64,000 nucleotides of DNA from a virus: the IMG/VR virus record IMGVR_UViG_3300037319_000172, positions 1 to 64,000 of that record; one strand, 5' to 3'. The notes under the pieces are model-generated. The model saw only the letters and a list, made by a program, of their open reading frames with translations. It was not told where the DNA came from and searched no databases. A program made the position numbers and the translations under genes. The first letter of the stretch is position 1. Each line of letters opens with the position of its first letter. Of this stretch, positions 43,349 to 63,501 are shown one piece after another.

Positions 43349-44617
43349 TTATATCTTTAAGAAAATCTTTCTAGTTTCTGAATCAATTCTAGTAACTTGT
43401 ACTGTCATTTTATCTCCAGGCTTAATAGTATCTAAATCTACAATATCTTCAATTTCTGAGATATGTAATAGTCCAGCTACTCCTTTTTCAATATCTACAA
43501 AGATTCCATAATCTTTAACTGCTTTTACAGTTCCTACAACCTCACTAGGTGTTTTAATTCTGTCTGTGATTCCTTCCCATAGATCAACTACTGGTTTTGA
43601 ATCGATTTGAGTTAAAATAATCTTCTCATTAGATACAACTTCTTTAATCTTAAAGACAACTTCATCTCCAGGTTGGATTTCTCTACCTTTATGTGCCTTT
43701 AATAATTCAGGAGTTAAATCATTAACGTGAATCATTCCTGTTAAACATTCATCAAACTCTACAAATACTCCGTATTTAGCAGAACCTGTAACTTTACCGG
43801 TAATTTCTTGATTTAAGTTTTCTTGTAATGCTTCTATCTTAGAAGGTATCATCGCTTTTAAGTATTCTCTGTGAGATACTACAATAGTTCCTCTCTTTTC
43901 AGAAAAACTAACAGGTACTACATACATATTAGTTCCTACGATAGATTCGAAGTCTGCTAATTTATTAATTCCAGCCAAAGAGCCTGGCATAAAGCAATCA
44001 ATCCCTTGAATTGTTACAATGTAACCTCCTCCTGGAATCATTTGAGAAACTAATCCCATATAACCAGTTGAAGCCTCTTCGATAGATTCCATGATCTCAG
44101 CAACTACTGCTGATTTAACTCCAGCACTGATAGATCCTAAAACATATCCTTTAGATCCTCCCATTTGAAGAACCTGAATTTTAACATCAGCTCCAAATAC
44201 AAACAATCCTCTAACGCTTATTTCTTCTTTCAATACATTAACATATACACTTTCGCGATATCCAATATCTACTGAAACCCATTCTGCATTAATACTATCG
44301 ATTTTACCCGAGTATATTTTACCAACTTCAACTTGCATTTGCATTGGTCTAGATTCTTCATATCCATTTAATAGGTTTAAGAAATCCTGAGCATATGGTT
44401 CATGTGAATACACATTATGTTGTCCTGAATTTTTAAGACTTTTATTTATCTTTCTAGATCTAGAAGGACATGATGCTTGGTGAGCATCCCAGTCAAATTT
44501 TGAAGGTTCGACGTTTGCATTTTCTAAATATGCTAATTTGTCTGATTTTTTTACTGTTTGAGCTTCTGGTTTATCTGAAACCATACGTACTCTTGATACT
44601 TTAACGTCTTTTGACAT
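43349..44617 (-). CDS. rpsA: Phage-encoded ribosomal protein bS1 homologue (four S1 domains)
   Basis: VSVDIGYRE, IDCFMPGS...IVVSHR, KYGVFVEF..GMIHVNDL and DYGIFVDI..GLLHISEI; N-terminal FDWDA segment. Confidence 0.88.
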   Translation of the reverse strand: MSKDVKVSRVRMVSDKPEAQTVKKSDKLAYLENANVEPSKFDWDAHQASCPSRSRKINKSLKNSGQHNVYSHEPYAQDFLNLLNGYEESRPMQMQVEVGKIYSGKIDSINAEWVSVDIGYRESVYVNVLKEEISVRGLFVFGADVKIQVLQMGGSKGYVLGSISAGVKSAVVAEIMESIEEASTGYMGLVSQMIPGGGYIVTIQGIDCFMPGSLAGINKLADFESIVGTNMYVVPVSFSEKRGTIVVSHREYLKAMIPSKIEALQENLNQEITGKVTGSAKYGVFVEFDECLTGMIHVNDLTPELLKAHKGREIQPGDEVVFKIKEVVSNEKIILTQIDSKPVVDLWEGITDRIKTPSEVVGTVKAVKDYGIFVDIEKGVAGLLHISEIEDIVDLDTIKPGDKMTVQVTRIDSETRKIFLKI

Positions 44618-44671
44618 TGTTTTTTTAATTTAAGTAGTTAATAATTAATAATTGTTTTAGTATATATCTCT

Positions 44672-46459
44672 TTAAAATACAACCGGAATAAATCCTATCA
44701 TAGGAATTGGACCGACTGACGTTGATAATTGTCCTACATATATGAATTTAAAAGATAACAAATGTTTTGCACATACTGCTGCAATAGCGGCTGCAACTAA
44801 TTTAGTAGCAACTGGAATTCCAGGTGGTTTGTCAAATGATTTACCTGTGTTAAATGCTCTTCTTAATCCTGATGCAAGTTTTGATGTACTTCCGTAATAA
44901 ACTGGTATAAATGATCCTGGGCTTGGTATATTACAAGGCGTGACTGCAGGTGAAGCTTTAAATGGTTGAACTGCTGTTGATAACCAATATGCCTTTATCG
45001 CTTTTGCAATTGTGTCATATCCATCAGCTGAACCTTCTACGTCTTCTTCAGAATTTTCTTGATCTAGTTCATTAGCCCACTGTCGTTGTAGTTCTCTGAA
45101 TCTATCTCTTTCTTCTGCGTATTGTTCTTCTAGTTTTTTATTTATATTATTTCTAACACTATTATCTCTGGTTGCCTTTCCTTTATCATGTTTATGTATG
45201 TACACGAACTTACATATAAATTTATTAGTAAACCATTCAGGTAATTCAGTAGGCCTATCTTCATGTCCTTCTTGAAAAACATACTGATTTATAGTAGATT
45301 CTTTTTTATAAACTGGAATTACTTCAGTTAATTTATATCTATTGTCAACATTAGGATCCTCAGTTTCAGGAGTGTAATAGAATCCACTTCTATTTTCCTT
45401 TCTGTACTCTATCCTATTTTTATTGGCAATCTCTTTTATTTTATTGTATACCTTTCTACCAATAGTTTTGTCGTCTCCTTTTTTAATAGTATTAATCCAC
45501 TTATTAAATTCTGGAGTTCCGTTATTTTGAGCCATTACTCTGTCAACTAAAGAATCTATAATTTCTTCATCTGATAGTTCTGGTATTGGCATATGAGTTT
45601 CTGGTATTAAAGCCTCCAACTCTGTATTATTTTGAGGTTCTTCGTTAGAATCAATTACGTCGATATCTGTTATGTTTCCATCTAATCCTATTTTTATAGA
45701 TTTAGATTTATTAATTTCTTTTATAACAACTTCTCCTGTTGAATCTAAGATACTTACAAACTTATAAGTATATTTACCAGGATACGCGGGGATTTCAATA
45801 TCTAACATGCCCTCTGTTGTTGCTGATGTCAATACTTGTTCCTCTCCGTTGATCTGGTATTTTATTTTATATGATTGATTTTTATCGAAGTCTTTTATAG
45901 AAAATCTAGCGATGTTTGTTTTAATAGGTGCCGCTGAGTTTTCTTTATCTAAATTTCCTTGGTCTTTTATTAATTGAAAGTCTACGTTTGCAAAGAAATC
46001 TAATTCTTTATGTAATGGACATGTTGTTTCGAAAAATGGATAGAATTTGAATTTATCTAATCTATCTTTATTTTCAATTGCCCACTTCTCAAGTTCACAG
46101 TATGGATTGTAACTAAGATCTGGTTCTGGTAATGCATCAAATAAATCGGCATACTTTTCCGCAAGTAGCCTGTTTTTCATTTCTTCTGAGCTTTTAATCT
46201 CATTAAATATTTCCTGAAATCCTTTTTTAAAACCTTCTTCTAATACAGGCTTTTGACCTGATTCGTGTAAGTTACCAAAAGGTGTTTGTGATGTTTTAAC
46301 TGCGTCGAAATATTCTTGAGCTAATATCTTACTAAAATCCGTTAAATAGTTTTCATCGGGATTCTTACTCACGTCTGTATTTGGAGAAGATCCATCAATG
46401 TTTCCACTACTCATTTGAGTGGATATGTTTTTAATAAATATAGGCCAATTTGCCGGCAT
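44672..46459 (-). CDS. Baseplate-associated protein next to the gp5-like gene
   Basis: Hydrophobic N- and C-terminal blocks around a long charged middle; late promoter at 46480-46487. Confidence 0.5.
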   Translation of the reverse strand: MPANWPIFIKNISTQMSSGNIDGSSPNTDVSKNPDENYLTDFSKILAQEYFDAVKTSQTPFGNLHESGQKPVLEEGFKKGFQEIFNEIKSSEEMKNRLLAEKYADLFDALPEPDLSYNPYCELEKWAIENKDRLDKFKFYPFFETTCPLHKELDFFANVDFQLIKDQGNLDKENSAAPIKTNIARFSIKDFDKNQSYKIKYQINGEEQVLTSATTEGMLDIEIPAYPGKYTYKFVSILDSTGEVVIKEINKSKSIKIGLDGNITDIDVIDSNEEPQNNTELEALIPETHMPIPELSDEEIIDSLVDRVMAQNNGTPEFNKWINTIKKGDDKTIGRKVYNKIKEIANKNRIEYRKENRSGFYYTPETEDPNVDNRYKLTEVIPVYKKESTINQYVFQEGHEDRPTELPEWFTNKFICKFVYIHKHDKGKATRDNSVRNNINKKLEEQYAEERDRFRELQRQWANELDQENSEEDVEGSADGYDTIAKAIKAYWLSTAVQPFKASPAVTPCNIPSPGSFIPVYYGSTSKLASGLRRAFNTGKSFDKPPGIPVATKLVAAAIAAVCAKHLLSFKFIYVGQLSTSVGPIPMIGFIPVVF

Positions 46460-46491
46460 CTTAGTTAGGTTTTATAAAGTATTTATCCTAA

Positions 46492-47211
46492 TTATTTTCC
46501 AGTCTGTTGGTAATTAACATGTTCTGACTTTAAAGTTGCTATCGCTGAAACTGTAGGTGGCGTTGGAGGACCTGAAGGTCCTGTCCCTGTTGGATGAAAG
46601 TGTTTTTGATAATCATCTAGTAGATTATTTAACCATCCTTCTAATGAAACTCCTCTAACAGCTGGTTCAGATTCATCTTCATCTCCTTCTCCAGTATTAC
46701 TTAAGAATATGTTTCCTGAATCTAAAAATATCTTTTCAGTTGTTGAAATTTTAATAATGCCAGCTTCATCAATTTGTATCAAAGGTCTTTCTTTAGCACC
46801 ACTTCCTCTTGTTATTACCAAACCATCTTCGGGAGAATGATATATCCTTACATTCCTGACGGCGTCATATACTAATGAAACTACATCATGAGCTGCCTCT
46901 GACGGATCTAATATGTCTTCTTTTAATTCTTTATTTTGGTTTATCTGAAACCAATATTCAGGGTGGTATATGTTACCATTATCAAATCTTACAGCGACAA
47001 TATCACCAATACGAGGTACCATTTGTGAACCTACTGCGTCTCTATTCATTGCAGTCGCCCATGGAATAGATTCAGTTTCTAATAAGTCAAACTTACCATA
47101 CACTTTTACCCTGCATCTGCTTAAGTTTGAAGGATCTACATTATCAACCACTTCTCCTAACCAATGAGTTTCTCTAATATTGTCTTTTTCAAGTTCTTTA
47201 TCTGTTGCCAT
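46492..47211 (-). CDS. Baseplate central spike (gp5/gpV-like OB fold)
   Basis: GEVVDNVDP...RCRVKVYG...IPWA...VPRIGDIVAVRFDNG; C-terminal HFHPTGTGPSGPP. Confidence 0.85.
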   Translation of the reverse strand: MATDKELEKDNIRETHWLGEVVDNVDPSNLSRCRVKVYGKFDLLETESIPWATAMNRDAVGSQMVPRIGDIVAVRFDNGNIYHPEYWFQINQNKELKEDILDPSEAAHDVVSLVYDAVRNVRIYHSPEDGLVITRGSGAKERPLIQIDEAGIIKISTTEKIFLDSGNIFLSNTGEGDEDESEPAVRGVSLEGWLNNLLDDYQKHFHPTGTGPSGPPTPPTVSAIATLKSEHVNYQQTGK

Positions 47212-48386
47212 TAATCGTGTATATTACCTAATGATTTAGCTGCTGCGCTATTCAGCGCATCTCCTATTGTTTGATTTCCTCCAGAAGTTATTCCATGAAC
47301 ATTATCTGCTATTGCAGTCTGAACGCTATTTTGATTAGCAACTGGATTCGTTGCACTATCTACCCCTTGGACAAAATCTTTATACAAGTTGTTAACTCCA
47401 ACATTTAATCTACCTACTGTAGCGTTTCTAGCTTGCTGCTTTAATTCATTAACTCGGTTTATTGAAGTGTTTTTTAAATCTGTAACAGCTCTATCTGCGA
47501 ATGCCATACCCTTTTTAACAGCTTGATCCTTTAAATAATCTCCTATACCGTCTATTTGCTTGTTTTCAGTATCAGGTGCTGGTGATAAATCATCCTTATT
47601 AAATCTGCTTTCTACTATTCCATTTAAAACTCTAGATTCGATATCATATAAACCTTCATAGTTTATTGTTATTTCACCTGTTGCTGCGTCTGTTGGTGAT
47701 TTTTGTAAATCTGCAAATATACTAGTTCCTGATGTAAGATCGAATTCACAAAACTTAAGTGCAAACATAAAATAAGGTCTAGCACTAGATCCTGATATTC
47801 CAGCATTTGAATTTTCTACACCAATTGACGGTTTAAAATTATCTGGAAATCCATCTAAATCAACTCCACTTACTTTAGGGTTTGTCATATTTTTAATAGA
47901 TCTTACTTCAGTAACATAAACATACATTCTAAATTTTCTTAAATTACAAGGTAATACATAAGTCCATTTTCTTTCATCGAAAACTGCAACTCTATATAAG
48001 TGCATTAAACCTGATATTGTTAAATTGATAGATTCTAATGTTGTAATAACTAACTTAGCGTCGTCTCCTCCGAAATAAGCATTCATTGGGTTGTACTGCT
48101 GTAATCTTTCTAAACCAGAAAGACTTTGCCAAAACCAAGGCATTTCATTGTTAATATGTTTTAATGCTTTTTTAAAGTTTTGAAGTGCTTCTAATTTCTC
48201 TGTATAATAAGGACTACCGTTTGCCAGTTTAGCTAAAAAGTCCTCTGCTGGCTTTGATAAAAGAGGAGAGTTTGCAGCATCCGCAAAATCAAACAACATC
48301 AGAAACGACATATAAGTCGGATCTTGATAATCGTTCTTTGATTTTTTACCCTTTCTAAAATCTGCTATTTTCTTAAAATCTGACAT
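47211..48386 (-). CDS. Baseplate/tail tube-fold protein
   Basis: Located between the hub and spike genes; WFWQSLSGL and LVITTLES tube-fold-like strands. Confidence 0.45.
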   Translation of the reverse strand: MSDFKKIADFRKGKKSKNDYQDPTYMSFLMLFDFADAANSPLLSKPAEDFLAKLANGSPYYTEKLEALQNFKKALKHINNEMPWFWQSLSGLERLQQYNPMNAYFGGDDAKLVITTLESINLTISGLMHLYRVAVFDERKWTYVLPCNLRKFRMYVYVTEVRSIKNMTNPKVSGVDLDGFPDNFKPSIGVENSNAGISGSSARPYFMFALKFCEFDLTSGTSIFADLQKSPTDAATGEITINYEGLYDIESRVLNGIVESRFNKDDLSPAPDTENKQIDGIGDYLKDQAVKKGMAFADRAVTDLKNTSINRVNELKQQARNATVGRLNVGVNNLYKDFVQGVDSATNPVANQNSVQTAIADNVHGITSGGNQTIGDALNSAAAKSLGNIHD

Positions 48387-48413
48387 ATACTATTTATCTT
48401 GTTTTTATTAAGA

Positions 48414-49919
48414 TTATTTTTTAATAGAATCCATATTATTTAATCTACCAGGCCATTCTCTTCTCAACAGTGTCATACTTTGTCGTATTGCTCCATTCTT
48501 ATAAAAATATCTAATAGATCCTACTATATAAAATCCACTTAAAAATTCATCAACAATATTAGAAGTATCTCCGGTAACATCATCAATATCTGCTGACTGC
48601 GATGCTTCAAAACCAAGTTCTTCTTTTTTAGCTTTTGCCGCCATGTCCGCTACAACCTGATTATACGTTTGTTGATATACTACTACTGGTATTTTTTGAA
48701 ATCTATATATTGCTGGATTCCAAGAAGACAACTCAACTTCTAAAAACATTTTATTTAATTCTTGTAAGTTTTGCTGATTATGTATTCCAGAAAAGTTATA
48801 GTTTAAGTGTGTATTTGAAGTCGCAGGATCATTATCTCTTCTTCCTACATATTTATACTTTATTTCTTGTTTATATCTCTCCTCATCCCTACGACCCTTC
48901 AGAGGCTCTACAATGTCCTTTAGTACAGTCGATGATAAAGGCTCTATATTAAAGTTAACTAATCCTTCCTCAGAATCGTTTTCAAAGAACTGTAACACTC
49001 TTTTATATCCATTCTTTTTGGACATTCTTCCAGCATTATTTTTTAAAGAGTATTTATCAATATGTAAATTAGTGCCTTCTAATTCAGGTTTTGTAGATAA
49101 TAAAAGATCTGATTTAATTTCGTTAGTTGTATTAGATGCGTCTTTATCTACTATGTCGTTTAAGTCTATGTCCATTGCAATTAATGCTTCTTCAAAATCA
49201 TCAGGTGCATTTAACATAACATTTAAATCAACATACGTTAGATAATAAAAAGGATCTATACAAAATGTTTGAAAAGAATCATCATTAACATATGAGTGTT
49301 TTACTAGATCTTCAATAGTATCTATAATAGGCTCAAATGCTGTTATACAATTTGATTCATCGTTTGTCGTATCGACATTACTTGCGAATCCTATTTTTAA
49401 ATCTGTTGCTATCTTTTCTAAATGATCTATCGTAGTACCTTTACCGTATGATTTACATTGCTCAGCGTTTATTCCTGGTATTTTCATTTCACCAGAAAAA
49501 GTGTATTTTCCTCCGCCGTCTCCCTTGATAAGCACACTGCTTGGTGGAGAATCAACTTCAGTTATGTCAAAGTCAATGTGTATGTCTTTATAGTCGTTTT
49601 TAGATCTAGCAGCCATTCTAACTGTAATTACATCGCCATCTCGTGGAAATGATTCTGCATTAAAATTAGATCCGTTATCTACAACTGTTAATTCTAAAGT
49701 AGGTAACATGCCGTCAATATTAAGTTCAAATGATTTAATATCGTTCTGGTTAAACCTATATCCATTTATTATTATCAATGGAAACTCTACTCCCATGCCT
49801 CTAGTTGTATTTGAATTCCCTGGATTATCTCCGTCCTCTTCACTATACGATTCGAATTTGTATTCATCGAGTTTTAATGTAGGTTCTAACCTTGTTAATA
49901 TCTTTCCTTCTAATGCCAT
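48414..49919 (-). CDS. Baseplate hub protein (gp27/gpD-like)
   Basis: N-terminal LELTVVD; C-terminal DEFLSGFYIVGSIRY...MTLLRR. Confidence 0.7.
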   Translation of the reverse strand: MALEGKILTRLEPTLKLDEYKFESYSEEDGDNPGNSNTTRGMGVEFPLIIINGYRFNQNDIKSFELNIDGMLPTLELTVVDNGSNFNAESFPRDGDVITVRMAARSKNDYKDIHIDFDITEVDSPPSSVLIKGDGGGKYTFSGEMKIPGINAEQCKSYGKGTTIDHLEKIATDLKIGFASNVDTTNDESNCITAFEPIIDTIEDLVKHSYVNDDSFQTFCIDPFYYLTYVDLNVMLNAPDDFEEALIAMDIDLNDIVDKDASNTTNEIKSDLLLSTKPELEGTNLHIDKYSLKNNAGRMSKKNGYKRVLQFFENDSEEGLVNFNIEPLSSTVLKDIVEPLKGRRDEERYKQEIKYKYVGRRDNDPATSNTHLNYNFSGIHNQQNLQELNKMFLEVELSSWNPAIYRFQKIPVVVYQQTYNQVVADMAAKAKKEELGFEASQSADIDDVTGDTSNIVDEFLSGFYIVGSIRYFYKNGAIRQSMTLLRREWPGRLNNMDSIKK

Positions 49920-49920
49920 T

Positions 49921-50412
49921 TTATAGTATTATAGTGTCTCCGTTAATATCTATGTTCTTTTCTCCGTCTTTTAAAATATTCGGCGGAACGATCTGAGTAG
50001 ATCCGTTTTGTTTTTCTGCCGCTTTCTTTTTTAAATAAGATGCTCTACCAGCGTCTTTAACTGTTAACCTCTTAGAATCTATAAATTGATCTTTAATAGA
50101 TGTTTCTTTTGAAGTTCCTGCTTCTTTTATTGTTTTCCAAGCTTTAAATTTAATATCAAGAGGTGGAATGTTTAATACATCTCCTTCATTAATTGAAAAA
50201 GGATTAGAAATATTATTAAACTTTAAAATTAGTTCCGAAGCATCTTCGTCGTTATAATATATTTTAGATATCATATCTATTCTACATACTTCATCCGCAG
50301 TAACAATGTGAGTTGCTATTGTTTGAGTCTCTTCTGGAAATATAACGTAAGGTTCTCCTAATCTTACCTTGTCGTCTTTTATCTTTTTATTATCTATAGA
50401 TTTGAATTTCAT
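49921..50412 (-). CDS. Baseplate wedge protein (gp53/LysM-like)
   Basis: RIDMISKIYY...ILKFNNISNPFSINEGDVLNIP. Confidence 0.8.
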   Translation of the reverse strand: MKFKSIDNKKIKDDKVRLGEPYVIFPEETQTIATHIVTADEVCRIDMISKIYYNDEDASELILKFNNISNPFSINEGDVLNIPPLDIKFKAWKTIKEAGTSKETSIKDQFIDSKRLTVKDAGRASYLKKKAAEKQNGSTQIVPPNILKDGEKNIDINGDTIIL

Positions 50413-50413
50413 A

Positions 50414-52162
50414 TTATCCGTTTACTTGTTTTGTCAGCTCGCTGTCCAAGTCCGATTTTTGTTGTTTACTATATGCGTTTACATTTGTAGTATTATTGAT
50501 GTCTTTCTCTCCATCAGGTTGTATGTAGAATCTACCTCGACCTGCATTAAACATACTTTCTATTTCTGCTTTATCTCTAGGTCTTGCTGGTTTCAACGTA
50601 ACTTCAACGACTAATCTTTCTGGAAAATCCTGAACTCCCATAGGTCCTTCAAAACTAACAGAAGTATCAGTACATGCTAAGTTACCAATAACAGCAATTG
50701 GATTTAATGGATTTCCTATAGTAACATGCCATTGTCCAGTAGGATCTCCTGTTAACAATGAATTAACTGCCATACCTCCTTGTGGAGAATTAAACATTTT
50801 CATCATCGAACCTCCTAAAAGATTATTTAAAGTCTTTCCTACTCCTCCTCCTTTTATAAAATCTTTAGCACCAGCTACGATATCATCCATCGGATTTCCA
50901 GAATTTTTACCTGTTAAATCGCTAATAATAGATTTCATAAATCCTGCAGCATCTCCATTTCTTAATTTACCAATATCACCTAAAGGCCTAGCGACAGAAC
51001 CATCTCCAATATATCGAGTAGCTCCACCCCAGAAAGGTGCATTATTATATGTAAGTGCTAATATATTAGATAATTGATCTAACATTAATATTTTTGGATT
51101 AGCTCCTCCTAAATCTCTTAGTTCATATTCGAATTTAAGTTTAAACTCTTGATCAAAGTTTAATCCAGATTCTCTTACTAAAACCTCTTTAATAACGTTT
51201 AAAGGTCCAAATACGTGATTAGGATATGTTTCCTTAAATGAATCATAACCTGCACCTCCATTATCTAATCTAGATTGTTCGGCAGCAGATCTACCAGAAG
51301 CAGCGTTACCTGCCGCCTTAAGTATTTTATTATTATTAATGAATGATCCTGCAGTTCCTGATTGTGCTCCTCTTCTAGATTGAATTTCTTGAACAGCAGC
51401 TTCTGCCTTCTTCCAATTATACCCATGTGAAAACTTCATGATGTCTTCCAATTTATTACCGGTTGCTTCTCCTAGCCATGTTACTGCTCTCGCGATATCA
51501 GGTTGTGGAACATTGTCGCCTGTTAATCCTTTTGGACTAATAATGTCATCGGGTGATGGGAATGAAAACCTTCTTAAAGTTATCATCATGTTATTTGGTA
51601 TTTTACCAAAATATTTAGTTAATGCAAAATCAGAATACTGATATCTATATCCTGCTCCACCGCTAGTATCTGTCATTTCTATGATTTTAGAAGCAGTTGG
51701 ATTAATTAAAGTTTTAGGATCTATTTTATTAAAAAACTTAGTCTGACCTTCAACCTTAGAACCAGTTGATGTCATTGGAGTCCCTCTGAAATTAACTAAA
51801 GAGTATTTATTAAAAAGAGAGTATGGACGAGGGCCGATACTAATATTAGCATCTCCATTAACATCCTTATGTCTATATGATGCCACTGAATCTGTATAAA
51901 AAACATCTCCTCCAATGGTACCTCTATTTTCTTGAGTAGGTTCACCCTGTATTGCAGCAACATTTAAACTAGAATCTTCAACGTTAGAAGACTTTAAAGA
52001 ATTCTCGTTGTTTCTAGTTCTTATCTGAGCGTTAACTCCATCAGGATTTTCAATATCAAATAAATCGTTAAGTTTATCTTTTATTGTGTTAGTTCCTAAT
52101 TCACTAAGATTTGTAATTGCCTCGTTTGAGTTATTTATACCTCCACTAATGTCTAATCCCAT
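50414..52162 (-). CDS. Baseplate tail-tube junction protein (gp48-like)
   Basis: C-terminal WHVTIGNP...IGNLACTD...FPERLVVEVTLKP tube-fold pattern; late promoter at 52196-52203. Confidence 0.55.
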   Translation of the reverse strand: MGLDISGGINNSNEAITNLSELGTNTIKDKLNDLFDIENPDGVNAQIRTRNNENSLKSSNVEDSSLNVAAIQGEPTQENRGTIGGDVFYTDSVASYRHKDVNGDANISIGPRPYSLFNKYSLVNFRGTPMTSTGSKVEGQTKFFNKIDPKTLINPTASKIIEMTDTSGGAGYRYQYSDFALTKYFGKIPNNMMITLRRFSFPSPDDIISPKGLTGDNVPQPDIARAVTWLGEATGNKLEDIMKFSHGYNWKKAEAAVQEIQSRRGAQSGTAGSFINNNKILKAAGNAASGRSAAEQSRLDNGGAGYDSFKETYPNHVFGPLNVIKEVLVRESGLNFDQEFKLKFEYELRDLGGANPKILMLDQLSNILALTYNNAPFWGGATRYIGDGSVARPLGDIGKLRNGDAAGFMKSIISDLTGKNSGNPMDDIVAGAKDFIKGGGVGKTLNNLLGGSMMKMFNSPQGGMAVNSLLTGDPTGQWHVTIGNPLNPIAVIGNLACTDTSVSFEGPMGVQDFPERLVVEVTLKPARPRDKAEIESMFNAGRGRFYIQPDGEKDINNTTNVNAYSKQQKSDLDSELTKQVNG

Positions 52163-54479: not shown

Positions 54480-54664
54480 TTTTTAGACTTAAGATTTTTA
54501 TTATGTTCTGTAGAGAACGTATCTATATAGTCTATAGATTCTGGAGAACCTATCAATGCGTCGGGACTCGTTACGTATATTTTATAGAACATAGTCGATC
54601 CTATCATTGATAATCTTTCTTTTAAATCTTCTAGTTCTGGTACAAATCTTTTATTAAATCCCAT
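54467..54664 (-). CDS. Hypothetical protein
   Basis: 65 aa ORF starting MGFNKRFV. Confidence 0.6.
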   Translation of the reverse strand: MGFNKRFVPELEDLKERLSMIGSTMFYKIYVTSPDALIGSPESIDYIDTFSTEHNKNLKSKNKQN

Positions 54665-55172
54665 TCCATGTATTTACTTGTTCAACTCCTATGCCTGCAT
54701 TTTTTAATAAATCAACGCCACTCATATCTCTATAATCTTCAGTGTAATACACTTTAGATATTCCCGCTTGTATAATTAATTTAGCACATCCGAAACAAGG
54801 ACATGTTGTTGTATATAGCTCAGCGCCTAAACAACTCATCGTAGATTTTGCAACTTTCATTATTGCGTTTGATTCAGCATGTAAAACAGCAGGCTTAGTC
54901 GCTTGTGATTCTTTAGTACAAACTCCTCGATCACATTCATATCCTTGTTCCATTAAATCTAATGCAATATCTGGATTTTCATAATGATGTCTAGTAATTA
55001 TAGGTTCTTCACATACATTGTTAAAACCATGCGGCATTCCATTATATCCAAACGAAATAACTTGATGGTCTTTAACAATAATACATCCTACCTTTCTTCT
55101 TTCAGCATAACTCAATTTAGAAAACTGATAAGCTGTTTGCATGTATACTAATTCAATTGGTATCTTTGGCAT
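54654..55172 (-). CDS. dCMP deaminase
   Basis: KVGCII, GYNG, HAESNA and PCFGC zinc-binding motifs. Confidence 0.92.
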   Translation of the reverse strand: MPKIPIELVYMQTAYQFSKLSYAERRKVGCIIVKDHQVISFGYNGMPHGFNNVCEEPIITRHHYENPDIALDLMEQGYECDRGVCTKESQATKPAVLHAESNAIMKVAKSTMSCLGAELYTTTCPCFGCAKLIIQAGISKVYYTEDYRDMSGVDLLKNAGIGVEQVNTWNGI

Positions 55173-55900: not shown

Positions 55901-55916
55901 TTTATCTTTCTAATAT

Positions 55917-56927: not shown

Positions 56928-56960
56928 AATATATTTGTTTTTATTACTTTATATATATAT

Positions 56961-57308
56961 CTATAATATCTTATTGACTTTTAATATCAACTGAGTGGTT
57001 CCTGGAATCAATCTATGTATAACTCCTACTGGTATTTTAACATCAACACCTCTTAATAATTCAACCGGTAATTCATTATCATATTGAAATCTCCAATCAT
57101 TATCTTCTAATACTTCGAGTATTCGAGTCTCATCATCGGCATGCCATTTATAAAGGTAATCAGGATATCCTGTTTCAAATGTTCTAATAACTATAGAATC
57201 TGATATGATGTGTTCAGTAAATGGTTTGGTTTGGTCATTTATATTAGACACAAGTTGTTCCATCGTCATATCACCACACTTACATGATTTACATTTACAA
57301 TCTACCAT
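56961..57308 (-). CDS. Cupin-like conserved phage protein
   Basis: KWHADDETR...WRFQYDNELP...IPVGVIHRL cupin-like His motifs; N-terminal CKCKSCKC. Confidence 0.65.
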   Translation of the reverse strand: MVDCKCKSCKCGDMTMEQLVSNINDQTKPFTEHIISDSIVIRTFETGYPDYLYKWHADDETRILEVLEDNDWRFQYDNELPVELLRGVDVKIPVGVIHRLIPGTTQLILKVNKIL

Positions 57309-57841
57309 GGGTTATCGCTTTTAAGTCCTAATTGCTTTCCAAAAAGTGTAGGCCCATAACATGCCCAGAATCCAGCTTTCATTGGATCCATCTTTTTAGT
57401 TTGATCACATTGATGTCTAGCCCAAAAACTAGCAGCCTTTCCTGCATCATCGTTTTTAACTGTAAGATTAGGATCTCCCCACTCTACTTTCTTTGCTAAT
57501 ACATTTCCTTCTTTGTCCTTTCTACCGCCGTCTCTATATACTATAAACTTCTTACCTCCTCCTCTTTCTGGAGAATCTAATTTTACTTTAACTGTTTTTC
57601 CTCCTCTTGGAGTATATAGTGCAGGTTTACCTACATCTAGATTTTTAGCCATCCATCCGCTAGGTCCTTTAAGAATAACATTATTCTTGTCCCAATACTG
57701 TTTTACTTCTTCAAACAACTTTGAATAAGAATCGCTTCCTAATCTAAAAAAAGAAGTAGTAAGATCTAAATCTTCTTTAATATGTGCCTTTAGCTCCGGA
57801 GATACGTTATCCCAATCTTCAAATGTTTTTATAAATTTCAT
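57302..57841 (-). CDS. Conserved T4-like phage protein with motif N-terminus
   Basis: MKFIKTFEDW; KKFIVY...KKVEWGDP...SFWARHQC...AGFWAC. Confidence 0.65.
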   Translation of the reverse strand: MKFIKTFEDWDNVSPELKAHIKEDLDLTTSFFRLGSDSYSKLFEEVKQYWDKNNVILKGPSGWMAKNLDVGKPALYTPRGGKTVKVKLDSPERGGGKKFIVYRDGGRKDKEGNVLAKKVEWGDPNLTVKNDDAGKAASFWARHQCDQTKKMDPMKAGFWACYGPTLFGKQLGLKSDNPW

Positions 57842-57850
57842 ACTAGTATT

Positions 57851-58153
57851 TTATTTCATGTTATCTATTAAGTCCTGTCTTCCTAATTGTTTATAAACTT
57901 CTTTACGAACCTTTTCCATCTTCTCAGCATACTTTGGATCTTCTTTACGATTAAACACAACCTGCTGTGTTAATGATCCACTTATCTTTTTAACATCTTT
58001 ATCACGAGTCTTTATTAACCATGCTGCTAAATCCTTGATACCTAAATCCTTGAATCTTCCTTCAGCCTCAGGAGCATCTGACTTATGAAAGTCAGGAGCA
58101 CCTGCTGGTTTCTTTTCATTTAAATATTCCTCAAATATTTTTATAAATTTCAT
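57851..58153 (-). CDS. Putative internal head protein
   Basis: MKFIKIFEEYLNE start followed by a basic domain. Confidence 0.6.
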   Translation of the reverse strand: MKFIKIFEEYLNEKKPAGAPDFHKSDAPEAEGRFKDLGIKDLAAWLIKTRDKDVKKISGSLTQQVVFNRKEDPKYAEKMEKVRKEVYKQLGRQDLIDNMK

Positions 58154-58154
58154 A

Positions 58155-58616
58155 TTATTCTTTTTCTGGTTTCCATGGAAGTTTAGAATCTTTACCAGAG
58201 TCTCTCACTTCTTTCGCTAGATCTTTGTCTGCGTTTTGCCAAGTTCCTTTTCCTTTGTCTAAGAATGCATTAACTCTAGCATATCCCCATGCTTCCTGTG
58301 GTACTCCAGGGTGGTGGCTTGAATTCCAAGCTCCCATTCCTCTTCGCATTACAGCTCTTATAATTCCTATTGGTACTCCAGAGCTTTTAGCTTTTTTATC
58401 AAGAGCAGTGTTTACTCCTTTTCCAGCAAGTTTTGCTCTAGAAGTTGTTTTCTCTTTGTCTTCAGCCTCACCGATAAAATTAGGCGTGTTATCATGATTA
58501 CATTTATGACATAAAAATACATCATTACCCCCATCTTGAATTTTCCAATCCCATCCGCAACCGTCACACGTTATAGTGTTAACTGTGAATTCTTCAAATA
58601 ATTGCAAATACTTCAT
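58155..58616 (-). CDS. Motif-bearing protein with zinc ribbon and conserved viral domain
   Basis: MKYLQLFEEF; CDGC...CHKC; RRGMGAW...HHPG...WGYARVNAF. Confidence 0.65.
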   Translation of the reverse strand: MKYLQLFEEFTVNTITCDGCGWDWKIQDGGNDVFLCHKCNHDNTPNFIGEAEDKEKTTSRAKLAGKGVNTALDKKAKSSGVPIGIIRAVMRRGMGAWNSSHHPGVPQEAWGYARVNAFLDKGKGTWQNADKDLAKEVRDSGKDSKLPWKPEKE

Positions 58617-59416
58617 TATAATTCCTTTTCTATTTTTTTGTTTAGCTTAATAATTTCTTTATTGTTTGATACTATACTTTCTTCTTTTGACTCTACATTA
58701 AAATATTTCCAACTTTTAATAAGTTGCAATTTACGATCTAACTGTGCCTTATCGAATTTACTTTCATCAAAATCGTAGTTTTTATCTGCACCGTTCTTAA
58801 CAACTCCAGCCCATGTGTATATTACAAAATCATCATCTTTATTTTGAACTTCCTGCCAAACATCCTCATCAGTTAATTTTGAATTCCTTTGTAAATCTAC
58901 TGTTAGTCTTTCGATTCTTTCTTTTTTTCTAATAACCTCTGTATTTAATTTTTCTAATTTAGATAACTTTTTAATTCTAGCAGAATAAGCCTTAGACCTT
59001 TCGCTTCTACCAGTTACTGGAAGATTCGTTTTAGTAATATATCTATAGTGTCTTACTTGAATTTGTCCACTTGCAATAATTACATCAGTTTCTAATCTAT
59101 ATCCTTTATCCTCTCTTAATACTCCTGCATTTATTTTCATAGTACCATTCCTTCCTCGAGATGTATTGATATCTGTAAGAGTATCTGTTGGTAGTGTGTA
59201 TTTTTCTAAAGATTTAAGTAGATTTAATGTTATATCCAATCGAGTGCTTTCTGCGTCTAGCTTAGAGAACTCTCTTTTCATTTCGTGAGTATAGTAGTGT
59301 TCAACATCCTTAATCATTTTAAGAATGTTAGGTTCTATTGCTGATAATATAGAATCTATTAAGTCGTTTGACTTAGATTCGTTTAAAAATTGATCGTATG
59401 TTTTAATTCTATTCAT
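58616..59416 (-). CDS. Putative internal head protein with coiled coil
   Basis: MNRIKTYDQFLNE; late promoter 4 nt upstream (59421-59428). Confidence 0.6.
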   Translation of the reverse strand: MNRIKTYDQFLNESKSNDLIDSILSAIEPNILKMIKDVEHYYTHEMKREFSKLDAESTRLDITLNLLKSLEKYTLPTDTLTDINTSRGRNGTMKINAGVLREDKGYRLETDVIIASGQIQVRHYRYITKTNLPVTGRSERSKAYSARIKKLSKLEKLNTEVIRKKERIERLTVDLQRNSKLTDEDVWQEVQNKDDDFVIYTWAGVVKNGADKNYDFDESKFDKAQLDRKLQLIKSWKYFNVESKEESIVSNNKEIIKLNKKIEKEL

Positions 59417-59426
59417 GTAGTATATA

Positions 59427-60356
59427 TTAAGATAAAATTAGCTCATTCATGAATTCTTTTCTGTATTTGATTAAAGCTAATTCTTTTGCTTTAACTTCTA
59501 GTTCTATATCAATATCCATGTTATAAGTTTCAATTTTTTCATAAATATAATCAGCATGAGCTCTTAGTATAACTGAATCATCTTCGTGTAATTTTTTTGA
59601 AGAAGAATAGTGACATAGTTGACGAATGCCGGCTGGCCATGTTTTAGCACATAATTCTAATGCATCTTTTTCAGGCATTGGATCTTCATAACATCTATGG
59701 TGGTGGTAATCAAACGTGATTGGAGTGCCACATGATTCGAATATTCTATATAAATCTTCTACGCCGTATTGAGAAGGCTTGTCATCATTTTCTAGAACCA
59801 ATCTTGTTTTAACAGTTTCAGGTAAACTTGGCCATACATCTATAAATCTTTGTATTGCAGCTTCTTTATCGCCATAAGAACCGCCAACGTGTATATTCAT
59901 AGCAGAGTTATGATCTCTAGCAAATCCCATTAAATCCATGATTTCGCCAGACTTACGCAATTCATTGATAGCACTTACAACAACTTTAGGAGTTGGACTT
60001 ACTAGCACGCAGAATTGACCAGGATGAAACGTTAATCTTTGGCCGTATGATCTTGCTAAAGTACCTGCACCTTTAAGTAGGTTTTTAATAACTGTATAGT
60101 TTGGCATTTCGCTGAATTCGTATTCACTCATCCAAGGAAACATACTAGAACTCATTCGATACATTGTAATTCCTTGTGAATGATTCCACTTTATAATTTC
60201 AATAAGATCTCGAAGGTTAGCTTCAGCTAATTCACTTGCATATTTTATACCTTTGGCAGTAAATGTACGTTTGATCATACTTCTACCTATTTTAATATCT
60301 TTTTCTTTTTGGAGAGTTAAATTAATACAACAATATCCGTAGTCTGCTTTTCCCAT
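59427..60356 (-). CDS. uvsE: UV-damage endonuclease
   Basis: GYCCIN, YRMSS, RLTFHPGQF, NIHVGG, LENDD, FDYHHH, HADY and EVKAKE. Confidence 0.93.
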   Translation of the reverse strand: MGKADYGYCCINLTLQKEKDIKIGRSMIKRTFTAKGIKYASELAEANLRDLIEIIKWNHSQGITMYRMSSSMFPWMSEYEFSEMPNYTVIKNLLKGAGTLARSYGQRLTFHPGQFCVLVSPTPKVVVSAINELRKSGEIMDLMGFARDHNSAMNIHVGGSYGDKEAAIQRFIDVWPSLPETVKTRLVLENDDKPSQYGVEDLYRIFESCGTPITFDYHHHRCYEDPMPEKDALELCAKTWPAGIRQLCHYSSSKKLHEDDSVILRAHADYIYEKIETYNMDIDIELEVKAKELALIKYRKEFMNELILS

Positions 60357-60366
60357 GTTTTGATGT

Positions 60367-60412
60367 TTATTAGTTATATGTAAATATAATACTTTTAATT
60401 GATATACGAAAA
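60367..60412 (-). promoter_or_regulatory. Early-type promoter
   Basis: TTTTCGTATATCAATTAAAAGTATTATATTTACATATAACTAATAA. Confidence 0.75.
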
Positions 60413-60423
60413 TAAAGAGTGAT

Positions 60424-60684
60424 TTAATCTACGTATTCTGATACGTTTTCTAATGTAAACCATTTTTTAGGTCTTCCGTCTATTTGTTTAAACTGATTAT
60501 ATTCTGATTCTGAATATGCGTAAGCTGCTGCCGCAAAGAATCCGTTATCTACTACGCATACCATGTTTTCTATGAATGCAGAATCATCAACATGAATCGC
60601 TCCCATTTTTGATAGCTTTTCACATTTTGAATTGAATGAACTTCCTAATTGAATTCCTTTGATTTGATTTACGTATTTTCCCAT
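60424..60684 (-). CDS. Hypothetical early protein
   Basis: 86 aa; VCVVDNGFFAAA...DGRPKKW. Confidence 0.65.
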   Translation of the reverse strand: MGKYVNQIKGIQLGSSFNSKCEKLSKMGAIHVDDSAFIENMVCVVDNGFFAAAAYAYSESEYNQFKQIDGRPKKWFTLENVSEYVD

Positions 60685-60694
60685 GTTTTTTTGT

Positions 60695-61033
60695 TTATTT
60701 TAAATTATTTTTACGGTAATTAGCAACTGACTTAATAATAATTTCTAATCTTGTATCAGGGTTATGTTCTAATACTCTTATAGTATTCATATAGTTACCA
60801 TACTCTGATTTTACCAACCTTTGCTTATTTAATTGGTAAATTACGCGTTGTTTGCTTTTAGTATAATATGATGTATGTGTATAAGATCTTCTAACGTATC
60901 CAGATGCGTAGCTTAAATAATTAACATCCATAAGAACATCACTGAAACATCTAGTTCCATTTTTCTTTTGTGTTTTTGATGTAGTTTCAACTAATTTAAT
61001 AGAGTGTAATTTGGTGTTTAAGTAATTTTGCAT
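60695..61033 (-). CDS. Hypothetical early protein
   Basis: 112 aa; SYASGYVRR...YQLNK. Confidence 0.65.
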   Translation of the reverse strand: MQNYLNTKLHSIKLVETTSKTQKKNGTRCFSDVLMDVNYLSYASGYVRRSYTHTSYYTKSKQRVIYQLNKQRLVKSEYGNYMNTIRVLEHNPDTRLEIIIKSVANYRKNNLK

Positions 61034-61043
61034 AATATGATTG

Positions 61044-61089
61044 TTATTAGTTATAAGTAAATATAATCATTTTATATGATATACGAAAA
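61044..61089 (-). promoter_or_regulatory. Early-type promoter
   Basis: TTTTCGTATATCATATAAAATGATTATATTTACTTATAACTAATAA. Confidence 0.75.
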
Positions 61090-61108
61090 TCCTAGGACTA
61101 TACTTTTG

Positions 61109-61131
61109 TTATTTATAATCATTATAGATAA
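61109..61131. promoter_or_regulatory. Palindromic operator-like site (Fur-box-like)
   Basis: TTATTTATA-ATCAT-TATAGATAA. Confidence 0.5.
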
Positions 61132-61139
61132 GACTGCAT

Positions 61140-61161
61140 AAAAAAAGGGACCGAAGTCCCT
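61140..61161 (-). terminator. Intrinsic terminator with a cUUCGg tetraloop
   Basis: Minus strand AGGGAC-TTCG-GTCCCT-TTTTTT. Confidence 0.88.
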
Positions 61162-61180
61162 GATCGACTGGCAGTCAATC

Positions 61181-61525
61181 TTATTTCCAAAAAACCTGGA
61201 TGCATAATATACCAAATGATAATATTATACACAGTAGTGTTTTCGTTGTTATTCCCTCATCCATCATAAAGTAAGTTATCGTGGTAAAAGTAATAATTCC
61301 ACATGCGAATCCAATAAACCTGCCTGGCCATATAGATCCATCGTAGTATTCTGCAACGTATCTAGTGGCATATATAAAAATATAGCTTATTATTGTTCCA
61401 CCTGTTATAGATAATATAATTGGATTCCTTTTAAACCAAGGCCATATAAATTGACCGTTAGTTTGAAACCAAATGAGCGCCTGTGCTAGCGTGAACAGCG
61501 CAACTCCAGTTATTAATCCTCTCAT
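61181..61525 (-). CDS. Small multi-pass membrane protein (about 4 TM; SMR/EamA-like size)
   Basis: Four hydrophobic stretches in 114 aa. Confidence 0.6.
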   Translation of the reverse strand: MRGLITGVALFTLAQALIWFQTNGQFIWPWFKRNPIILSITGGTIISYIFIYATRYVAEYYDGSIWPGRFIGFACGIITFTTITYFMMDEGITTKTLLCIILSFGILCIQVFWK

Positions 61526-62164
61526 TTAAAATAATTCCCCTGATGTGGTTAGTAGATGAGATATGAAACTATCTCTATGGTGTATATTTGATCCTGTTTC
61601 TCTAATCGCAGTTATATGTTGTTTAGTACCGTATCCTTTATTTGAATTCCAGCCATATATCATGAATTCTTCATTTTCGCTTAATTCTTTCATTAAAGAA
61701 TCTCTTCCAGTTTTAGCAAGAATAGAAGCTGCTGCAATTGATGTGTATTTATTATCACCACCGACTATTGTCTCAAACGGAACTCCATCATATCCATGAA
61801 ATTGATCTCCGTCTACTAATATAAAATCAAATTGTTTTTCGTTTTTATCTAGATTTACTAAACATCTTCGCATTCCTTCTAGAGTTGCTCTAAGAATATT
61901 CATATGTTCTATGTCTTTTACATCGACATGTTCTACATGATACGCTATTGCATTCTCTAAAACGATTTCACGAGCTAGTTTTCTTTCCTTTTCGTTAAGA
62001 AGTTTTGAGTCTTTAATTAATGGATGTTGAAAATTATGAGGCATTATACAAGCAGCAACAGTAACGGGGCCCGCTAGAGCGCCTCTTCCTGCCTCATCAA
62101 TTCCAACTTCTGTTATTGTTATATCTTTATTGAATGATCCTTTTAGTAAGATGTGTTTAGACAT
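61526..62164 (-). CDS. rnhB: Ribonuclease HII
   Basis: GIDEAGRGALAGPV, DSK, VDG, SIAAASILAK and NKGYGT. Confidence 0.95.
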   Translation of the reverse strand: MSKHILLKGSFNKDITITEVGIDEAGRGALAGPVTVAACIMPHNFQHPLIKDSKLLNEKERKLAREIVLENAIAYHVEHVDVKDIEHMNILRATLEGMRRCLVNLDKNEKQFDFILVDGDQFHGYDGVPFETIVGGDNKYTSIAAASILAKTGRDSLMKELSENEEFMIYGWNSNKGYGTKQHITAIRETGSNIHHRDSFISHLLTTSGELF

Positions 62165-62182
62165 ATATAGTTATTTTAGATA

Positions 62183-62210
62183 TTATACTTAAATATCTGG
62201 AATAGTTTAC
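62183..62210 (-). promoter_or_regulatory. Middle-type promoter
   Basis: GTAAAC-17 nt-TATAA. Confidence 0.55.
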
Positions 62211-62927
62211 TTATTCGTTGTCTAATTTCCATTTATCATACCTTTTAACTACATCTATAAGAATTTTAGCTCTTACGATATCTTTTTCAGTAAATGCGTG
62301 GTGTCCAATTCCTTTAATACCTTTCATTAATTCTGTAAAAGGTTCTATTCCTGCAGAATTCTTAGATATATCATATTGACTCACATCACCTGTTATGATC
62401 ACTTTAGAAGTCTTTCCCATTCTGGTAACAAATAACATTAACTGTTTAAATGTTGCATTCTGTGCTTCATCAAGTATCATCAGTGAGTCGTCATACGTGT
62501 CTCCTCTCATAAATGCTAAAGGTCTAAATTGTATTATCTCAGACTGTACTAATTGTTCTGTTAGAACTGGTCCTATTATTTTAGTTAAGTTAGAAATATA
62601 TGATTGCATATATGGATCTATTTTTTCTCCGATATCTCCTGGAAGAAATCCTAACTTTTCTCCAGCCTCTTGAATAGGCTTACATAAAATAATGTTTTTG
62701 ATTTTGTTATCTGCAAATAATTTTAATGCAGCGTAACATGCTGTGAATGTTTTTGAAGTTCCAGCAGGACCTGAACAAAAGGTTATATCATTCTCTAATA
62801 TATTTTGTAGATACGCTTTTTGAGATTGTCTTAATTGCGCTTTTATATCTGCTGGTTTAATAATGACTTTACGTCTGTTAATTCTGTTGTTATCGTTTCC
62901 GTTTGTGTTTTCAGAATTCTTCTTCAT
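62211..62927 (-). CDS. phoH: PhoH-like ATPase
   Basis: GPAGTSKT, EKLGFLPGD, LAFMRG, ILDEAQN and TGDVSQ. Confidence 0.93.
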   Translation of the reverse strand: MKKNSENTNGNDNNRINRRKVIIKPADIKAQLRQSQKAYLQNILENDITFCSGPAGTSKTFTACYAALKLFADNKIKNIILCKPIQEAGEKLGFLPGDIGEKIDPYMQSYISNLTKIIGPVLTEQLVQSEIIQFRPLAFMRGDTYDDSLMILDEAQNATFKQLMLFVTRMGKTSKVIITGDVSQYDISKNSAGIEPFTELMKGIKGIGHHAFTEKDIVRAKILIDVVKRYDKWKLDNE

Positions 62928-62946
62928 ATAATGTTAGTTGTTATGT

Positions 62947-63204
62947 TTAATCCCCTGCCATTTCGACAAGTTCTTTCAATTTCATTAATTTATCGCACTT
63001 CTCATACTCTTCCAATCTTTCGAAATACTGAACTAAGATATCGATAAATTCGCTTCTTTGTCCAATACCGTGAGGTATCTCGATTATATCATTTCCCTCT
63101 TTGAAAACGACAAATCTATTCACTGTCTTTGTGAAGTTACGTGTTATTGTGTAATACGAAGATCTCATTAAAGAGTCTCTGTCTTCTCCTAGGATATCTT
63201 TCAT
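62947..63204 (-). CDS. UVR-like motif protein
   Basis: C-terminal YFERLEEYEKCDKL. Confidence 0.55.
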   Translation of the reverse strand: MKDILGEDRDSLMRSSYYTITRNFTKTVNRFVVFKEGNDIIEIPHGIGQRSEFIDILVQYFERLEEYEKCDKLMKLKELVEMAGD

Positions 63205-63312
63205 TTGATTGATTTATTTTTATACTCTGCCATTATATTCTATATATTAAGTAGTGCCTTGTGGTACTGACATAATATGAATTAAAGTATAATGATATTA
63301 TATTATCAAATG

Positions 63313-63501
63313 TTATTCCTGGTTATTAAATTTGTTTTCAACGTACTTTGCTTTTTGCATTTTAGTACGCTTCTCGACTGAAGGTTTCGTATAATCTTTT
63401 CCTTCTCTAAGGGCTTTAGTTTGCCCTGTTCTGTTTACTTTATATTTGAATGACTTTAAAGCCTTTTCAATGTTTCCTTTTTCTACTTTTATTATTAACA
63501 T
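63313..63501 (-). CDS. rpsU: Phage-encoded ribosomal protein bS21
   Basis: MLII...NIEKALKSFK...LRE...YTKPSVEKR...QKAKY, a Bacteroidota-type bS21 pattern. Confidence 0.9.
   Translation of the reverse strand: MLIIKVEKGNIEKALKSFKYKVNRTGQTKALREGKDYTKPSVEKRTKMQKAKYVENKFNNQE

Follow-up and report, generated by a model that had tools for sequence, protein, structure and literature searches.

The window analysed here is a 64,000-nt stretch of viral DNA (positions 1 to 64,000 of the IMG/VR virus record IMGVR_UViG_3300037319_000172). It encodes two homologues of ribosomal proteins, an S1-like protein and a bS21. From their sequences, docking on the ribosome seems feasible for both: the bS21 carries the residues typical of Bacteroidia, and the S1-like protein keeps an aromatic pair and the equivalents of D39 and K43 of E. 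coli bS1. The reading favoured here, to which we give a probability of roughly 0.6, is that the two separately transcribed proteins, a bS21 and a bS1 paralogue, would enter the host 30S subunit and sustain a type of initiation that is blind to the Shine-Dalgarno (SD) sequence, on A-rich mRNAs that have no SD.

The window makes up the first 64 kb of a contig (termed G000) that is 109.6 kb long and has no end repeats. The completeness of the contig is estimated by CheckV at 35%, and thus the whole genome would be about 300 kb. Its G+C content is ~31% and the minus strand holds almost all of its genes. The source is most likely a jumbo phage from an aquatic sample, with a host in the Bacteroidota of the Flavobacteriia type. 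A SAR11 host, suggested by analogy with phage HTVC008M, was considered and dropped, since the cellular relatives of the bS21 are nearly all from Bacteroidota and the Bacteroidia tyrosine is present.

The S1-like protein and bS21

The rpsA models are colinear with the S1-like protein over positions ~19-371 of 580, i.e. domains 1-4, and E. coli bS1 residues 10-344 (OB1-OB4) align to it using HMMER. The protein ends with OB4, so that OB5 and OB6 are absent. Scores against the rpsA equivalog models are 153.9 bits (NF004952, cut-off 524) and 137.7 bits (TIGR00717, cut-off 577). As these are far under the cut-offs, the protein is a truncated and divergent bS1 paralogue rather than an rpsA equivalog. 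It has no family in PHROGs. The AlphaFold (AF2) model, with 57 homologues and a mean pLDDT (predicted local distance difference test score) of 74, displays a helix followed by four OB folds. Its leading Foldseek matches are bS1 chains on the 30S subunit (best match 9gut_B, E-value = 8.9e-27); 4q7j and 4r71 are also among the structure matches.

The domains and their coordinates are listed in Table 1. The segment that precedes the docking-type helix, residues 1-72, has invariant residues at F41, W43, C50, P51 and N58 in the 57 homologues, and no counterpart of it is found in cellular bS1 in the alignment with the E. coli protein. The best-conserved N-terminal stretch is E73-P74-Y75-A76-Q77-x-F79, where Y75 and A76 are invariant and E73 and Q77 are kept in at least 90% of the rows. 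Read by eye, its register is comparable with the uS2-docking helix E3-S4-F5-A6-Q7-L8-F9 of E. coli bS1. In the E. coli protein, F5 and F9 stack on F32 of uS2 and Q7 contacts uS2; D39 and K43 also contact uS2, with K43 inserted into the uS2 zinc pocket (PMC10123108). At the positions that correspond to D39 and K43, D117 is invariant and residue 121 is R or K in the homologue alignment.

A complex of residues 60-185 with the uS2 of F. johnsoniae was predicted with a score of 0.56, the best of three controls having 0.02; this is graded as weak support. At least 87% of the contacts are common to the runs, and the partner pLDDT is at least 74. The pass mark is reached by 58 of 80 solved complexes and by 2 of 110 mismatched pairs, and scores of 0.60 or less are found in only 7 of the 80 solved complexes, plus both of the passing mismatched pairs. 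It should be noted that a bS1-uS2 complex has already been solved, and thus a pass may reflect likeness only.

The S1-like family has a chain length of 396-433 amino acids (aa), is present in at least 592 IMG/VR stretches, and is conserved to ~50% identity in marine and freshwater metagenomes. Judging from the steady length and the many invariant columns that persist down to this level of identity, the family is under purifying selection.

The bS21 gives full-domain profile matches with PF01165 (44.2 bits, cut-off 27) and TIGR00030 (41.3 bits, cut-off 28.95). Among solved structures, its closest relatives are 9i5v_9 and chain 7jil_z from F. johnsoniae. In the alignment to 7jil_z, Y53-V54 of the phage protein pairs with Y54-I55, which is the signature of the Bacteroidia subtype, and Y53 is invariant across 13 phage and cellular relatives. 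Tyr54, the signature residue of bS21 in Bacteroidetes, is stacked on A1534 and contributes to turning the 16S rRNA 3′ tail into a pocket of bS18 and bS6, which results in SD-blind ribosomes (PMC7797042, PMC9976891). Of the 80 best cellular relatives, 78 are labelled Bacteroidota, with 46%-58% identity. The phage sequences are 80%-90% identical among related phages and show at most 58% identity to cellular proteins. Thus the claim of a first-pass annotation of this DNA, that both exchangeable proteins of the platform are encoded, holds for a bS21 and for an S1-repeat protein with domains 1-4 only, and fails for a full rpsA product.

The start of the bS21 gene overlaps an upstream open reading frame by 7 nt and the upstream sequence has no SD. 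The homologous upstream regions in close relatives give duplex energies with the anti-Shine-Dalgarno sequence (ASD) of about -0.5. In cellular Bacteroidota, strong SDs precede rpsU in 23% of the sampled loci (L104-L183). The strongest of these are of the extended AAAAGGAGGTG type, at 6-8 nt before the ATG and with a duplex energy of -13.1 kcal/mol; this reproduces the result of Jha 2021. Among 79 phage rpsU copies the strongest SD duplex is -8.6, which is consistent with escape from SD-based autoregulation. With no upstream SD, the phage bS21 gene should escape the SD-based autoregulation that operates on rpsU in Flavobacteriales.

The bS21 gene is located behind a DnaJ gene and beside PhoH and RNase HII, away from the structural genes. 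It overlaps a small open reading frame, which in turn overlaps the DnaJ gene, so bS21 is probably co-transcribed with the chaperone. There are small open reading frames on both sides of bS21, at 62947-63204(-) (85 aa) and 63495-63749(-) (84 aa), and the two have a common C-terminal EEYEKC motif. A ClpP gene is present elsewhere on the contig, at 86423-86950(-). This neighbourhood may be of interest because McNutt 2023, who discussed phage bS21 in relation to rpsU autoregulation, speculated that a phage protease or factor removes host bS21 and aids its exchange.

Leaders and distribution of the two genes

Upstream of 125 contig genes, positions -21 to -1 display 50%-70% A and 2%-10% G, compared with 38% A and 19% G in the coding sense, and A peaks at -11 and -3. 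SD 4-mers are found upstream of 3% of the starts. ASD duplexes of -4.4 kcal/mol or lower occur at 5% of starts vs 18% of random coding windows. SD sequences are thus actively depleted at the starts, beyond chance, and the SD-less, A-rich leaders described in the first-pass annotation are borne out. The leader profile matches the initiation signal of Bacteroidota (PMC7797042).

It had also been proposed that these leaders form part of an initiation code for late mRNAs. Leader composition is, however, equal in the structural, auxiliary, collagen and early-like plus-strand blocks (A 0.47-0.58, G 0.04-0.10). In relative G011 (234 kb, 87% complete), where the S1-like gene is present and S21 is not, the leaders have A 0.52 and G 0.085. 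This is the same profile as that of the present contig and of a second contig with both genes, G001 (A 0.54 and 0.54, G 0.069 and 0.083, respectively). Flavobacterium phage 11b (36 kb), in which neither the S1-like nor the S21 gene was found, displays A 0.55 and G 0.074, with SD 4-mers at 7% and strong duplexes at 1.8% of starts. The gut Bacteroides phage crAss001, where both genes are also absent, is a less suitable control than phage 11b. Its leaders are A-rich and SD is not enriched, but G depletion is weaker (14%) and 8 of 41 starts have SD 4-mers. With two controls compared, some remaining correlation of the S1-like gene with extreme SD avoidance may exist across host classes.

As far as computation can test, the leader features are independent of both genes, and the first-pass annotation had itself named such a lack of correlation among related phages as evidence against its proposal. 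By their composition the SD-less, A-rich and G-poor leaders appear as a trait of the host group, and neither as a late-specific nor as a phage-specific code.

A hairpin-hidden SD had been noted as well. The four SD-like starts between the two genes (61525, 58616, 49919 and 62927) fold no better than shuffled sequences (z from -0.4 to +1.6), and the initiation regions of both focal genes are no more structured than shuffles. The only G+C-rich hairpin that bears an SD-like string (AGGGA) is a terminator-like one at 61146-61161, and this is the probable source of the hidden SD.

S21 is found in 13 of 25 long contigs with the S1-like gene. When contigs are limited to those that are informative, i.e. 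where the place expected from synteny, upstream of the S1-like gene by 15-28 kb, falls inside the contig, S21 is present in 13 of 20 and absent in 7, some of these 7 having an estimated completeness of 74%-87%. In the other direction, 15 of 20 contigs with this type of S21 have the S1-like gene, at ~20-28 kb from S21 where the spacing was worked out. In four of the five S21 contigs with no S1-like gene the expected position is probably beyond the end of the fragment, gene orientation not having been worked out there.

When the S1-like proteins are placed in a maximum-likelihood tree, six of the contigs without S21 (G008, G009, G011, G012, G015 and G023) form a tight clade with 100/100 support. 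The remaining S21-less contig, G018, is on its own branch, and both it and the six-contig clade are nested among S21-bearing lineages. The simplest reading of the tree is that the pair is ancestral and that S21 was lost once or twice; the pairing would then be real but not obligatory. The S21-less clade includes contigs of up to ~236 kb and up to 87% completeness, with an S1-like gene that is ~50% identical, and it forms a natural comparison group for S21 loss. The phage-specialised ribosomes of the first-pass annotation thus keep part of their basis, in that putative docking residues are retained and the genes co-occur with conserved spacing in most relatives, but they are accompanied by no distinct class of leaders.

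Possible roles of the two proteins

In the mechanism proposed here, the bS1 paralogue would have kept the ribosome-docking half (the N-terminal helix, OB1 and OB2) and the RNA-binding OB3 and OB4, lost OB5 and OB6, and gained an extension of ~70 residues. Both phage proteins would enter the host 30S subunit at the normal bS21 and bS1 sites during infection, so that the phage supplies a stock of platform proteins outside host control. That this stock is insensitive to feedback is probable, since the bS21 tyrosine would hold the anti-SD tail occluded and its own mRNA has no SD of the rpsU type. Ribosomes would stay replete and SD-blind, with a high rate of initiation on unstructured, A-rich, SD-less mRNAs. 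A candidate role of the N-terminal extension is to outcompete host bS1. The comparisons of sequences and models show what the genes are, how the domains are arranged, which residues are conserved, the leader statistics, and how the two genes co-occur and are distributed on the tree; incorporation into the 30S subunit, competition with the host proteins and a bias to phage mRNAs are inferred from them.

Several points weigh against this reading. S1-domain proteins are common, and the failed equivalog cut-offs and the missing OB5-OB6 imply that the S1-like protein may not act as a ribosomal protein. The HMMER alignment starts only at E87, paired with E10, and so the register of the docking helix is not that of HMMER. 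The predicted complex with uS2 is weakly supported and may echo the complex that is already solved. In one or two sublineages the S1-like gene was kept while S21 was lost, and thus the two proteins need not act together. The Bacteroidota host is itself an assignment made by inference from sequence. Al-Shayeb et al. caution that a true rpS1 is not confirmable from sequence (PMC7162821), and HTVC008M bS21, the one phage bS21 to have been put to a functional test, gave E. coli ribosomes that were almost inactive (PMC6375957).

A stronger form of the same idea is a ribosome-locking module, made up of the ancestral pair, in a widespread clade of aquatic Bacteroidota jumbo phages. Here the extension would let the phage S1 outcompete host bS1 at uS2, and bS21 would keep every 30S subunit SD-blind. 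Host rescue and autoregulatory circuits that depend on SD (rpsU and related genes) would be disabled, and initiation would be tilted to phage mRNAs with very short, G-free leaders. DnaJ and ClpP might represent a chaperone/protease set that helps the exchange. This form is speculative and we regard it as rather doubtful.

A serious rival, although on balance an improbable one, is that the S1-like protein acts off the ribosome, as an RNA chaperone, an mRNA protector or a cofactor of a phage RNA enzyme, with the presence of bS21 in the neighbourhood coincidental. In this way host S1 serves Q-beta replicase and also stimulates RegB of T4. Q-beta replicase also binds OB1-OB2 of bS1, and the two structure matches 4q7j and 4r71 are in line with this type of role, as are the scores below the rpsA cut-offs, the absent OB5-OB6 and the retention of the gene in lineages that lost S21. 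The residues that argue for the ribosome are those expected to dock on uS2 (the aromatic pair, Q, and the D39/K43 equivalents); they are conserved in the family, and the predicted uS2 interface, weak as it is, far exceeds its best control.

The late-code proposal of the first-pass annotation, in which phage bS1 and bS21 jointly build specialised ribosomes that selectively read leaderless, A-rich and hairpin-masked SD starts, is considered unlikely. Leaderless mRNAs need no bS1, and the leaders are alike across gene blocks, in S21-bearing and S21-less relatives, and in phage 11b with neither gene; no hairpin-masked SD is found among the folded starts. The two proteins are indeed platform neighbours, bS21 bridging OB1 of bS1 to 16S rRNA in E. 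coli (PMC10123108). The pair appears ancestral and syntenic in the phage group, the S1-like gene lies at the 3′ end of the tail/baseplate block, and the conserved phage-specific extension would suit a specialised ribosome. Late expression of bS21 is reported in other Bacteroidetes phages (Chen 2022, PMC9723584), but here the gene is with DnaJ, PhoH and RNase HII rather than with structural genes. The phage bS21 also retains the host-type Tyr54, and this anti-SD-occluding residue argues for preservation of host-like initiation over reprogramming. That both genes are recently captured, non-adaptive host passengers, or come from cellular contamination of the contig, is largely refuted and highly improbable. 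Both have cellular homologues and the contig is a metagenomic fragment with 35% completeness, but both are embedded in phage genes on the same strand. The S1-like protein is only distantly related to known bS1 and rpS1 proteins and yet is conserved over hundreds of viral contigs, and the S21 is far closer to that of related phages than to cellular proteins, with conserved synteny.

The possible remodelling of host ribosomes by phages with their own ribosomal proteins can be addressed by experiment. The present clade is a clean test case, because the host counterparts have been dissected in F. johnsoniae (structures, depletion strains, and reporters with and without SD), and it offers natural relatives that kept the S1-like gene and lost S21. 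The maintenance of SD-blind initiation, as favoured above, predicts that phage bS21 would restore anti-SD occlusion and repress the SD-dependent translation of rpsU. It should be added that earlier papers already contain the concept, the finding of rpS1/rpS21 genes in huge phages and their link with missing SDs, and that the 'code'-like leaders are ordinary for the host group.

Genomic setting and known systems

A distance of 19 kb separates the bS21 and S1-like genes, whose transcription contexts differ; unrelated genes lie between them, as do promoter-like motifs and hairpins of the terminator type (Table 1). They form neither a locus nor a single co-regulated unit. The region 43349-63501, taken as one system in the first-pass annotation, is no functional unit but the stretch that separates two genes. 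The baseplate block ends with the S1-like gene, past which lies a terminator-like hairpin, a putative end of the tail/baseplate transcription unit. A megablast search of positions 43349-52162 against the phage collection gave zero matches, i.e. no close cultured relative, and no tRNA or tmRNA genes are present in the 64-kb window. Genes for bS18 and bS6 (the other anti-SD-occluding proteins) and for peptide deformylase were searched for in the contig and in four large relatives and were not found; the assembled set is thus limited to the S1-like protein and S21.

Table 1. Features of the window and of the contig (G000) to which it belongs.
Feature	Position	Strand	Remarks
S1-like protein, 422 aa	43349..44617	(-)	N-terminal extension, docking-type helix, four OB/S1 domains
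Phage-specific N-terminal extension, residues 1-72	44402..44617	(-)	from alignments; residues 1-29 predicted disordered (pLDDT)
Docking-type region, residues 73-89	44351..44401	(-)	helix 75-89 (model); motif E-P-Y-A-Q-D-F
OB1, residues 101-162	44132..44317	(-)	D117/R121 align with E. coli D39/K43
OB2, residues 186-248	43874..44062	(-)	alignment and model
OB3, residues 272-336	43610..43804	(-)	canonical S1 RNA-binding domain; PF00575; aligned to E. coli d3
OB4, residues 358-421	43355..43546	(-)	canonical S1 RNA-binding domain; PF00575; aligned to E. coli d4
bS21 (rpsU homologue), 62 aa	63313..63501	(-)	Pfam and TIGRFAM above cut-off
DnaJ (J domain and C-terminal domain)	contig 63742-64536	(-)	directly upstream of S21
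Amidoligase-like protein	41020-42312	(-)	auxiliary gene
gp5-type OB hub	46492-47211		among tail/baseplate genes, between the two focal genes
dCMP deaminase	54654-55172	(-)	between focal genes
UvdE, UV endonuclease	59427-60356	(-)	between focal genes
RNase HII	61526-62164	(-)	between focal genes
PhoH	62211-62927	(-)	between focal genes
Promoter-like motif	43210..43247	(-)	ATG 11 nt downstream; heads small-gene block downstream of S1-like gene
Promoter-like motif	60367..60404	(-)	upstream of UvdE gene
Promoter-like motif	61044..61081	(-)	upstream of 60695-61033
Promoter-like motif copies	contig 65017-65038, 93462-93483, 93962-93983, 94103-94124, 94642-94663
Promoter-like motif copies	contig 96342-96363, 96712-96733, 98595-98616, 99577-99598
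Terminator-like hairpin	43291..43328	(-)	8-bp stem then T-rich tail; just past S1-like stop; read from sequence, not scored in consensus scan
Intrinsic-terminator-like hairpin	61146..61161	(-)	AGGGAC-TTCG-GTCCCT then T run

A conserved promoter-like motif of ~38 nt, TATCAAT-N9-TATATTTACnTATAACTAATAA, is found 13 times on the contig, mostly in front of small genes in a divergent block at 93-100 kb. The motif fits neither the sigma-70 nor the Bacteroidota -33/-7 consensus, which would allow for a transcription factor specific to the phage. The distance from the end of the motif to the ATG is 8-12 nt in 10 of the 13 copies, and thus the leaders are probably very short and G-free. Transcription starts just past the TATAACTAATAA motif would mean leaders of 10-12 nt. 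The copy at 43210-43247 is context only and is outside any ribosome system.

The -10-like elements ATAAATA, TATAAATA and GTATAATA are enriched 15-20-fold upstream of genes relative to coding sequence and precede many contig genes, e.g. 47211-48386, 50414-52162 and 54654-55172. In front of 47211-48386 and 50414-52162, ATAAATA and GTATAATA stop 3-4 nt short of the ATG. These elements may represent a T4-like late promoter. The use of such a promoter as proof of leaderless mRNAs was dropped, because the spacing from element to ATG varies from 0 to 37 nt (mode 16, most often 12-18 nt) and the genome is AT-rich.

Palindromes rich in AT, of the type TATAAT-N-ATTATA, are found at 61108-61130(-), between the terminator-like hairpin and a promoter-like motif, and at 63290-63312(-), just past the S21 stop; they are possible operator sites. 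The promoter-overlapping hairpins of the first-pass annotation are thus present in the form of a terminator and AT palindromes beside a promoter-like motif. These are features of DNA and transcription, with no demonstrated tie to the two proteins.

Chen 2022 (PMC9723584) proposed that the bS21 of freshwater Bacteroidetes phages substitutes into host ribosomes in late replication. Those phages are similar to the present one in having a small bS21 with a conserved C-terminus, and in being large (up to 331 kb) aquatic phages with predicted Bacteroidetes hosts. Their bS21 gene is, however, within a terminase/capsid/portal block, unlike the location described above, and an S1-like partner is not mentioned in that work, whereas it is present here. 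The bS21 of marine myophage HTVC008M, which infects Pelagibacter, enters E. coli ribosomes, and earlier viromes had hinted at viral bS1 and bS21 (Mizuno 2019, PMC6375957). The HTVC008M protein is derived from Alphaproteobacteria, in contrast to the Bacteroidota type found here, and an S1-like partner was not reported for it. The bS21 of F. johnsoniae (7jil_z; Jha 2021, McNutt 2023) is close to the phage protein in length class, in Tyr54 and the hydrophobic residue that follows it, and in a less basic C-terminal part; it differs in that the phage gene has no upstream SD.

Al-Shayeb 2020 (PMC7162821) described rpS1 and rpS21 in huge phages, observed that rpS1 carriers rarely have SDs, and proposed a hijack of initiation. 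A large phage genome with no recognisable SD sites is a trait of this takeover gene set, and the present contig displays it. Here, however, the absence of SDs is common also to a phage without S1 (11b). The huge-phage rpS1 proteins (LR756500-LR756504, LR745206, Lak phages) are likewise multi-S1-domain proteins of phages >200 kb, and the S1-like protein shows 28%-42% identity to huge-phage and Lak rpS1 over the aligned part; identity of the family to other known bS1 and phage rpS1 proteins is ~25%-34%. The family described here differs from them in its fixed architecture of four domains preceded by a conserved N-terminal extension, and in IMG/VR it is very widespread. Compared with E. coli bS1 (6h4n_y, 7qgh_t, 9gut_B), the protein has colinear OB1-OB4, a docking-helix-like motif, the D39/K43 equivalents and RNA-binding OB3 and OB4, but is without OB5/OB6, has ~70 extra N-terminal residues, and is far under the equivalog cut-offs.

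Ribosome takeover by phage rpS1/rpS21 and its link to missing SDs are thus already published (PMC7162821, PMC6375957, PMC9723584). What is added here is an account, at the level of domains, of a widespread S1-like family that has four domains, an N-terminal extension and a docking-type helix; of its ancestral yet dispensable pairing with a Tyr54-type bS21 whose gene is SD-less; and of leader features that are independent of both genes.

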